Below, piece by piece: positions 1,955 to 2,265 of a stretch of 4,330 nt of DNA. The stretch comes from a virus (lineage: Duplodnaviria > Heunggongvirae > Uroviricota > Caudoviricetes). Where the stretch lies: the IMG/VR virus record IMGVR_UViG_2706794667_000008, positions 1-4,330 of that record. One strand, given 5' to 3'. A model generated the notes under the pieces. That model ran no database searches. It was not told the DNA's origin and saw only the letters and a list, made by a program, of their open reading frames with translations. Each line of letters opens with the position of its first letter. Positions within the stretch are counted from its first letter, which is position 1. The position numbers and the translations under genes are program-made.

Positions 1955-2029
1955 TGGAGCGGGCAGCGGGAATCGAACCCGCATCATCAGCTTGGAAGGC
2001 TGAGGTAATAGCCATTATACGATGCCCGC
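1955..2029 (-). tRNA. tRNA-Gly (anticodon UCC), glyT-like
   Basis: Minus-strand sequence GCGGGCATCGTATAATGGCTATTACCTCAGCCTTCCAAGCTGATGATGCGGGTTCGATTCCCGCTGCCCGCTCCA folds as a cloverleaf: 7-bp acceptor, anticodon stem TCAGC/GCTGA, loop CTTCCAA, T-loop TTCGATT, encoded CCA. Confidence 0.8.
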
Positions 2030-2032
2030 ATA

Positions 2033-2108
2033 TGGTGCCGACTACCGGAATCGAACTGGTGACCTACTGATTACAAGTCAGTTGCTCTGCCTGCTGAGCT
2101 AAGTCGGC
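2033..2108 (-). tRNA. tRNA-Thr (anticodon UGU), thrU-like
   Basis: GCCGACTTAGCTCAGCAGGCAGAGCAACTGACTTGTAATCAGTAGGTCACCAGTTCGATTCCGGTAGTCGGCACCA: perfect acceptor and anticodon stems, loop CTTGTAA, T-loop TTCGATT. One A-C mismatch in the T-stem, so a pseudo-tRNA cannot be excluded. Confidence 0.65.
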
Positions 2109-2110
2109 GC

Positions 2111-2187
2111 TGGCCCACCACCGAGGACTCGAACCTCGCACCGTCAACTTAGAAGGTTGATGCTCTATCCGGATGAGCTAGTGGTGG
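2111..2187 (-). tRNA. tRNA-Arg (anticodon UCU)
   Basis: CCACCACTAGCTCATCCGGATAGAGCATCAACCTTCTAAGTTGACGGTGCGAGGTTCGAGTCCTCGGTGGTGGGCCA: anticodon stem TCAAC/GTTGA, loop CTTCTAA, T-loop TTCGAGT, 7-bp acceptor with an unusual C1-G72 pair. Confidence 0.7.
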
Positions 2188-2188
2188 T

Positions 2189-2265
2189 TGGTGGCCCTTG
2201 CTGGACTTGAACCAGCGACCTGGCGATTATGAGTCGCTCGCTCTGACCAACTGAGCTAAAGGGCC
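2189..2265 (-). tRNA. tRNA-Ile2 (anticodon CAU, ileX/ileZ-like); elongator Met not excluded on anticodon alone
   Basis: GGCCCTTTAGCTCAGTTGGTCAGAGCGAGCGACTCATAATCGCCAGGTCGCTGGTTCAAGTCCAGCAAGGGCCACCA: loop CTCATAA; acceptor and T-arm closely resemble E. coli ileX as recalled. Confidence 0.75.

Follow-up and report, generated by a model that had tools for sequence, protein, structure and literature searches.

The window analysed here is the whole of a 4,330-nucleotide (nt) stretch, positions 1 to 4,330 of the IMG/VR virus record IMGVR_UViG_2706794667_000008. It carries a compact array of four tRNA genes, Ile2-Arg-Thr-Gly, on its minus strand, downstream of a Q-like late antiterminator gene and a tR′-like terminator. 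Our analysis suggests that the array is a self-contained cassette in a 'moron' position, with four functional elongator tRNAs that would be transcribed both from a promoter of their own and by Q-dependent read-through, and that would add decoding capacity for rare codons. Judged from sequence comparison, the probability of this reading is roughly 0.7. The array itself is already known: the cassette is common among the lambda-like prophages of E. coli and Shigella and has been annotated there.

Four tRNA genes of mosaic origin

An ARAGORN search of the whole window found exactly four tRNA genes and no others, all on the minus strand. Each was scored against the Rfam tRNA model RF00005, which has a gathering score of 29 bits.

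2189..2265, minus strand: tRNA-Ile2, anticodon CAU, predicted to read AUA after lysidine modification; labelled Met(cat) by ARAGORN; Rfam score 70.5 bits
2111..2187, minus strand: tRNA-Arg, anticodon UCU, reads AGA/AGG; argN-type body with C1-G72; Rfam score 56.4 bits
2033..2108, minus strand: tRNA-Thr, anticodon UGU, reads ACA; thrU-type; Rfam score 69.8 bits
1955..2029, minus strand: tRNA-Gly, anticodon UCC, reads GGA/GGG; glyT-type; Rfam score 64.9 bits

Scores so far over the threshold, with E-values of 1e-10 to 1e-14, exclude chance, and by this profile score all four belong among bacterial elongator tRNA genes. The array spans 311 nt (2265..1955), its spacers being A, GC and TAT in order (1, 2 and 3 nt), and CCA is encoded in all four genes. 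Both programs agreed with an initial annotation, made from the sequence alone, on the coordinates, anticodons, strand and 1-3-nt spacers; Thr and Arg, for which that annotation had asked whether tRNA-finders might score them below threshold, did not fall below it. A permissive Rfam search of positions 1-2460 otherwise returned only sub-threshold matches, which were taken as chance: isrK (19.9 against 50 bits), the Trp leader (23 against 41) and antisense-tRNA artefacts.

In the Rfam alignment, all four stems of Arg were perfectly paired, a non-canonical A27.C43 pair topped the anticodon stem of Ile2, and the T-stem mismatch of Thr was A52.C62. The stems of the array are paired except for mismatches that also occur in host or Shiga toxin (Stx) phage homologues. 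The C1-G72 pair of Arg and the A-C mismatch of Thr, both remarked upon in the initial annotation, are present. Since host thrU itself has the mismatch, and C1-G72 does not vary within the argN-type family, these are inherited features and not signs of decay. The four tRNA genes are real and, as far as sequence can tell, look functional.

The Gly gene is identical to glyT of K-12 and of Salmonella (75/75). Thr matches thrU of both at 74 of 76 positions, the sole differences being U16C and U20C in the D-loop, and its anticodon arm (ACUGA-CUUGUAA-UCAGU) is exactly that of thrU. The suspicion that host-gene alignment might expose decayed copies was therefore half right, in that Thr and Gly are copies of host genes, but intact ones. 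Because Salmonella thrU and glyT are identical to those of E. coli, neither the donor nor the age of these two genes can be inferred; the sequences of thrU and glyT are evidently frozen across enterobacteria. The possibility that a segment had been captured from the thrU-tyrU-glyT operon of the host was considered and rejected: homology in the flanks or spacers was not found, and identity ends at the boundaries of the mature tRNAs. Compared with the host thrU-tyrU-glyT-thrT-tufB operon, the window lacks the host spacers (TCAAGTCC, 116 nt, AGATGT) and lacks tyrU.

Ile2 is identical to K-12 ileX at 69 of 77 positions, with a compensatory change of C6-G67 to U-A, and differs from Stx2a ileZ at three. 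It shares with ileX the loop of the anticodon arm and four of the five pairs in its stem, pair 27-43 alone differing. The acceptor pairs C4-G69 and C5-G68 are determinants for TilS, and Ile2 retains both, together with a CAU anticodon on its ileX-like body. The ARAGORN label of Met arose from the CAT anticodon only; the identical gene is labelled tRNA-Ile by the Prokaryotic Genome Annotation Pipeline (PGAP).

The Arg gene is closest to the gene in the second position (slot 2) of enterotoxigenic E. coli (ETEC) arrays (66/77) and to Stx2a argN(UCG) (64/77), and more distant from host argU (54/77) and argO (46/77). It retains the Arg identity elements A20, C35 and U36. On these comparisons it is an argN-type body with the anticodon of argO. 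Among seven members of this body type, 95% of cells pair and C1-G72 never varies. Five of 21 pairs change on both sides, whereas slid controls give none. Compensatory changes were also found in relatives of Ile2 (6-67) and of Gly (6-66, in 38 copies), and the anticodon loops of all four tRNAs match those of the host. Taken together, the array is a mosaic in which the first two genes are of ileZ/argN type and the last two of thrU/glyT type.

Transcription and codon supply

The elements relevant to expression of the cassette are listed in the order of transcription.

2455..3009, minus strand: intact Q-like late antiterminator gene, 184 amino acids, with matches to PHROG 753, Pfam and structure 6P18
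2390..2470, minus strand: region expected, by inference only, to hold pR′ and the Q loading site at a position not fixed more closely
2353..2383, minus strand: tR′-like intrinsic terminator, GC stem 2375..2371 / 2365..2361, U-run 2360..2354
2275..2303, minus strand: promoter-like element of the tRNA cassette, -35 TTGCAG at 2303..2298, 17-nt spacer, -10 TATTAT at 2280..2275
1670..1696, minus strand: first terminator-like hairpin past the array, a 7-pair stem then TTTTGT (consensus scan; putative function)
1305..1341, minus strand: strong terminator-like hairpin just upstream of the holin gene (consensus scan; putative function)

A consensus scan placed the promoter-like element downstream of tR′ and upstream of Ile2, with a 9-nt GC-rich stretch between TATTAT and G1 of Ile2. 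Four lineages of the cassette (the window type, the Stx2a/ETEC type, the Lys-Lys type and the decayed-slot-2 type) were aligned on this G1. All share TTGCA(A/G), a 17-nt spacer, TATTAT (TATCTT in one) and the 9-nt GC-rich stretch. The two hexamers had mean pairwise identities of 0.89 and 0.83, compared with 0.41 in the spacer and 0.30 in the sequence upstream. A published differential RNA sequencing study of the Sakai Stx2a phage reports a primary transcription start site (TSS) between tR′ and stx2 that appears to drive the tRNAs (PMC7547250). This TSS, known from the Stx2a phage only, lies at the place equivalent to our motif.

The initial annotation had expected the tRNAs to be expressed with the late operon, after Q and tR′. 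The position was borne out, and the array lies on the late strand, 88 nt downstream of the terminator. This account of expression is incomplete, however, as a conserved promoter-like element lies between tR′ and Ile2, so that expression probably does not depend on Q alone. Most likely, the cassette has its own promoter and is additionally reached by read-through from pR′ in an induced intact phage. The terminator hairpin reads GAGCCCGC-UUUAU-GCGGG followed by U7, and forms 13 pairs in an RNA fold of 2460..2266; this whole leader folds at z = -3.6 relative to shuffles. The stretch 2400-2455 is co-inherited with the Q type in relatives bearing a different tRNA cassette.

Under the proposed mechanism, a single precursor would start a few bases before G1 of Ile2, from the sigma-70 promoter TTGCAG-17-TATTAT. 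A second route, in an intact phage after induction, would be read-through of tR′ by Q-modified RNA polymerase. Following established E. coli tRNA maturation, RNase P would cut each 5′ end and 3′ exonucleases would trim the 1-3-nt trailers after the encoded CCA, so that no endonuclease cut in the spacers would be needed. Transcripts from the cassette promoter would end at the hairpins at ~1696-1670 and ~1341-1305, ahead of the holin gene. The second of these has a 10-pair stem (6 GC pairs) followed by TTTTTCTTTC. A moron is an autonomous unit of promoter, gene and terminator that is expressed in the lysogen; the promoter-like site at 2303..2275 and the terminator-like sites at 1696..1677 and 1341..1315, all from the consensus scan, are candidates for the two flanking elements of such a unit. 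The best consensus promoter match in the region was a different one, TCGGCA-16-TATAAT (2041..2014, minus strand; 10/12), which was judged spurious because it spans the Thr/Gly junction, uses the TATAAT of the glyT D-arm and would yield a truncated Gly.

Different Q/tR′ modules join the same promoter-plus-tRNA block at the terminator U-run, which indicates that the block moves as a unit. Conversely, relatives with the same Q bear another cassette after their tR′. In one such locus (L038, 6040-6480) and other Thr-Gly-only loci, the Q gene is the same, with 92-94% identity down to window position 2400, followed by a separate tR′, an AT-rich promoter-like stretch, a 60-nt hairpin leader (GGTTC...GAACC) and then Thr-Gly only. 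tRNA cassettes thus appear to be exchanged as blocks at tR′.

In E. coli, AUA, AGA/AGG, ACA and GGA/GGG are each read by a scarce tRNA from one or two genes. The four cognate codons were said in the initial annotation to be rare in E. coli, and this agrees with their frequencies in a 50-kb K-12 sample, 1.2 to 6.0 per 1000 codons (ATA 2.4, AGA 1.2, ACA 5.4, GGA 6.0). The late genes of an intact relative, the prophage in E. coli FDAARGOS_944, which is 98.8% identical to the window over 852-3912, gave 10.5, 5.0, 12.6 and 14.7 per 1000, respectively. These correspond to odds ratios of 4.4, 4.2, 2.3 and 2.5 (all p<1e-6), though they compare the intact relative, rather than the window remnant, with that 50-kb host sample only. 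This enrichment supports the codon supplementation that had been proposed. The ipaHb gene of the same prophage (L136, 25361-27187), which encodes a T3SS effector, exceeds the K-12 sample 16-fold in its use of AGA and about 5-fold in that of ATA. The products of the array would add decoding for AUA, AGA/AGG, ACA and GGA/GGG, codons favoured by phage late genes and by ipaH cargo; aminoacylation, lysidine modification and a benefit to translation would be expected to follow. There is precedent for such an explanation of tRNAs downstream of Q (PMC3636060, PMC7366253).

Related arrays and known systems

The 311-nt array was found 100% identical in 29 loci from different genomes. With its flanks, the exact array occurs in ~10 of 5,426 complete E. 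coli genomes in RefSeq, in all of which it is annotated as tRNA-Ile/Arg/Thr/Gly. It is present three times in S. flexneri SFBU1023 and three times in 'E. coli' ECMA0423. The initial annotation pointed to the ileZ-argN-argO set of Stx phages and took the array for a variant of it; a relative it is, but not a rare one.

To place the array among its relatives, IMG/VR was surveyed with two scans, one for the Thr-TAT-Gly junction and one for the Ile2/slot-2 junction. Each listed 119 loci, and the counts are lower bounds.

Thr-Gly alone: at least 53 (Thr-TAT-Gly scan); not applicable (Ile2/slot-2 scan)
Ile2-Lys(UUU)-Thr-Gly: at least 35 (Thr-TAT-Gly scan); at least 38 (Ile2/slot-2 scan)
Ile2-Arg(UCU)-Thr-Gly, the window's type: at least 14 (Thr-TAT-Gly scan); at least 31 (Ile2/slot-2 scan)
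Ile2-Arg(UCU), as called by ARAGORN: not applicable (Thr-TAT-Gly scan); at least 24 (Ile2/slot-2 scan)
Ile2-Arg(UCG)-Arg(UCU): not applicable (Thr-TAT-Gly scan); at least 6 (Ile2/slot-2 scan)

Among the matches listed, the 'Ile2-Arg(UCU)' class comprised ~20 loci in which the gene in slot 2 is deleted and argO comes next, and ~6 in which that gene is a hybrid with an argO-like 3′ half. The U16C/U20C haplotype of Thr was linked to Arg(UCU) arrays in 28 of 28 cases. Thr variants with TAATCACCAGG and TAATCATCAGG also occur in IMG/VR loci; the window Thr has neither.

One of the closest known sets is ileZ-argN-argO of Stx2 phages (933W / Sakai Sp5 type; Stx2a_F349, AP012530), which, like the window array, follows Q/tR′ and precedes the genes for toxin or lysis. 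Both begin with the same Ile2 gene (3 differences), the second gene has the same C1-G72 body (64/77) behind the same 1-nt spacer, and the TTGCA(A/G)-17-TATTAT-9-nt promoter-like element precedes both. The slot-2 anticodon, however, is UCU in the window and UCG in argN. The window also lacks argO (Arg-UCU, on a G1-C72 body), carrying Thr(UGU)-Gly(UCC) instead; it has no stx genes after the array, and its Q is of a different family (DUF1133/Q21-like). With argO absent, UCU in slot 2 and Thr-Gly behind, the window array is a relative of this set and not a copy. In the literature library available, nothing of relevance turned up under the gene names ileZ, argN and argO, or on tRNA in connection with 'ipaH islands'.

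The second half of the array is matched by the Thr(UGU)-Gly(UCC) pair of the Stx2f phage phi467 (PMC7366253) and of many lambdoid prophages, which has an identical TAT spacer and stands directly upstream of a phage-21-type S-R-Rz cassette. In phi467 the pair stands by itself downstream of stx2f, and its Thr has the exact sequence of thrU, whereas in the window the pair follows Ile2-Arg after 2 nt and its Thr is of the U16C/U20C haplotype. The Ile2-'Lys'(UUU)-Thr-Gly arrays of ETEC prophages and of phages vB_EcoS-689R5 and PhiR47_1 have the same order and spacing, with homologous bodies and ~90% identity. They differ in slot 2, where the loop is CCUUUAA (C33) with discriminator U, compared with CUUCUAA and G73 in the window.

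U33 is near-universal before tRNA anticodons. In ETEC1732 (L006, 3095-3171) and at least 38 IMG/VR loci, slot 2 holds a C1-G72 argN-type body with loop CCUUUAA (UUU, C33) and discriminator U73. This gene may be an anticodon-shifted tRNA, and it may evade nucleases, Lys(UUU) being a target of PARIS. In two further loci (L082, 3480-3555, and L125), a thrU-type body has changed its anticodon from UGU to UUU, together with A26G, giving the array Ile2-Lys-'Lys'-Gly. At other loci, the gene in slot 2 has deletions or is identified as Ser(UGA) or Leu(UAA). Cassettes of this kind seem to change their anticodons unusually readily. An apparent tRNA-Val (L005, 3372-3443, from CFSAN029787; also in VL46, RMDEC364 and RMDEC332) proved to be a decaying Gly copy in an array otherwise 99% identical. 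It has C35A (anticodon UAC) and a second change in the anticodon loop; the 3′ strand of its acceptor stem has lost 1 nt, and CAA stands in place of CCA. A 'Salmonella phage' match with Tyr-Thr-Gly (H30) was the chromosomal thrU operon misfiled in a phage collection.

tRNA genes downstream of Q have been described in SfI, Sf6, ST64T, PS3 and phage 21, and codon supplementation was proposed for them (PMC3636060). The tRNAs found between q and stx have also been reported to vary in composition, Met-Arg and Thr-Gly being among the sets (PMC7366253). SfI and phage 21 each have a Thr(UGU) gene in the same position as the window (PMC3636060, PMC12445682), the SfI set being Asn and Thr.

Prophage setting and alternative explanations

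The remaining genes of the window belong to the nin/Q region and to a lysis cassette.

3296..3895, minus strand: DUF1367/NinB-like gene
3006..3296, minus strand: YbcO/HNH-like gene
1059..1274, minus strand: phage-21-type (class II) holin, first gene of the lysis cassette (Pfam PF04971 Phage_holin_2_1, 121 bits)
852..1059, minus strand: truncated endolysin, 69/165 codons, cut by an IS911 fragment (Pfam Phage_lysozyme, residues 34-69 only)

The Q-like gene matched PHROG 753 ('anti-termination protein Q-like') at 268 bits, Pfam DUF1133 at 357 bits and PF06530 Phage_antitermQ at 29.4 bits against a cut-off of 26. Its match to the solved Q21 structure (6P18) was weak and collinear (E=4e-4), and PGAP names its 98.8%-identical homologue a DUF1133 family protein. 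The cassette lies on the late strand between Q/tR′ and the lysis genes, a layout that is the same in the intact relative. Beyond the shared genes, the FDAARGOS_944 prophage has a complete lysis cassette, then genes for terminase, head and tail, and lastly ipaHb at its end. In the window, a 680-nt non-coding stretch separates the tRNAs from the holin, which PGAP labels 'class II holin' in the intact relative.

The window locus is a prophage remnant. Homology of the endolysin to the intact rrrD of a relative (L001) ends at window position 852. Of the 165 codons of this SAR-type endolysin 69 remain, which leaves the lysis cassette dead. The adjoining insertion sequence (IS) fragment is the left end of an IS3/IS911 element (311 nt, 541-851), with an orfA start and HTH_Tnp_1, and is itself truncated. 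At the other side, an IS1A end (4231-4330) adjoins the prophage ~335 nt upstream of the NinB-like gene and separates the nin/Q region from the former early region. With the early side cut by IS1, the cassette promoter would be the sole obvious route of expression in the remnant, and the Q-dependent route may no longer operate. Positions 1-540 directly duplicate 1281-1820 (540 nt, 99.6% identity, 2 mismatches). The duplicated stretch is the holin-proximal part of the tRNA-to-holin spacer, and its left copy is joined to the IS911 fragment and not to tRNAs. The arrangement points to either a tandem rearrangement mediated by an IS or the joining of two copies of the prophage. On the plus strand, a hairpin at 1451-1515 (second copy 171-235) consists of CCCGCCAGCA, a 36-nt loop and TGCTGGCGGG, followed by TCCTTTTTT, with a TTGACA hexamer at 1386, ~60 nt upstream. 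The hairpin could be the end of a small antisense transcript opposite the late operon; the RefSeq relative has no annotation at this site.

Several observations weigh against a cassette of functional, self-expressed rare-codon tRNAs. The promoter-like element fits only 9 of 12 consensus positions, and the leader of ~2-3 nt that it would give is unusually short for RNase P. A consensus sigma-70 match for pR′ was not found in the stretch from the stop codon of Q to tR′. The host already has the genes that Thr and Gly duplicate, so that their added value would be one of dosage only, and the scope of the codon comparison given above counts on the same side. Sister copies, moreover, are decaying. 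Thr is 74 nt long in L013 and L015, and one of the Thr copies of S. flexneri SFBU1023 is shortened. With the Gly of CFSAN029787 and the slot-2 genes, this indicates that selection on the cassette is not strong everywhere.

Of the other explanations, the one that survives best, although we regard it as doubtful, is that the cassette is more than a phage accessory and has been domesticated by the host. By constitutively raising the supply of AUA, AGA, ACA and GGA decoders, it would tune the translation of AT-rich virulence genes gained by horizontal transfer, such as ipaH. The prophage type that bears the array is, by its gene content, evidently an ipaH carrier of enteroinvasive E. coli (EIEC) and Shigella. 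The promoter resembles that of a stable RNA, and the cassette stays intact in IS-riddled remnants, with several copies in a Shigella or EIEC genome, such as the three each in SFBU1023 and ECMA0423.

The same remnants could also be taken to mean that the array is a neutral passenger, a relic in a decaying prophage that no longer contributes to cell or phage. The IS1A end at 4231, the IS911-truncated endolysin and the 540-nt duplication are in keeping with this, as is the decay of sister copies (Gly in CFSAN029787, the 74-nt Thr genes and, among the matches listed, ~20 to 24 loci in which the slot-2 gene is deleted). It is nevertheless unlikely. All four genes are intact and 100% identical to those of the intact prophage and 28 other loci despite rearranged flanks, the promoter motif is intact, and the compensatory substitutions in the family indicate long-term structural selection.

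A role in anti-defence, in which phage tRNAs replace host tRNAs destroyed by immune nucleases (P2 Old, PARIS AriB, PrrC, colicin-type) and the phage finishes its cycle, has attractive precedents. P2-OLD kills through cleavage of tRNA-ThrU(UGU), and nuclease-resistant phage Thr(UGU) tRNAs such as tRNA-Thr21 and Thr6 protect, including that of phage 21 (PMC12445682), a close lambda relative with its tRNA genes downstream of Q (PMC3636060). Related arrays carry Lys(UUU) with the unusual C33 loop, and Lys(UUU) is the PARIS target (PMC12445682). Resistance to P2-OLD, however, maps to the anticodon arm, where the CNG motif is altered and the stem shortened, and the ThrU arm abolishes protection (PMC12445682). 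The Thr of phage 21 has the altered arm, whereas the window Thr, with its UGU anticodon, has the arm of ThrU. The window Gly is glyT, and the loops of Ile2 and Arg are identical to those of the host. Host-like anticodon arms in Thr and Gly, and host-like loops in all four, disfavour an anti-nuclease role, which we consider improbable for this array.

Least probable by our estimate is that the tRNAs are purely late genes, lacking a promoter and made only when Q drives read-through of tR′: their place on the late strand just past the terminator and the modest promoter match would suit this, but hexamers and spacing are kept in four lineages with diverged surroundings, the Stx2a study reports that, in the homologous region, the tRNAs have a primary TSS located past tR′ (PMC7547250), and the Thr-Gly-only relatives have promoter-like sequence after tR′ too.

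As a discovery, the array means little, since tRNAs after Q, their variable composition and the idea of codon supplementation are published, and the exact array is annotated in RefSeq. What is added is its mosaic anatomy, and the view of cassette and promoter as one swappable block beginning at tR′. By published criteria, the window Thr is predicted to be sensitive to P2-OLD, unlike the Thr of phage 21 (PMC12445682). If the cassette is expressed in lysogens, it would offer a simple handle on the influence of prophage tRNAs over virulence-gene expression in Shigella and EIEC.

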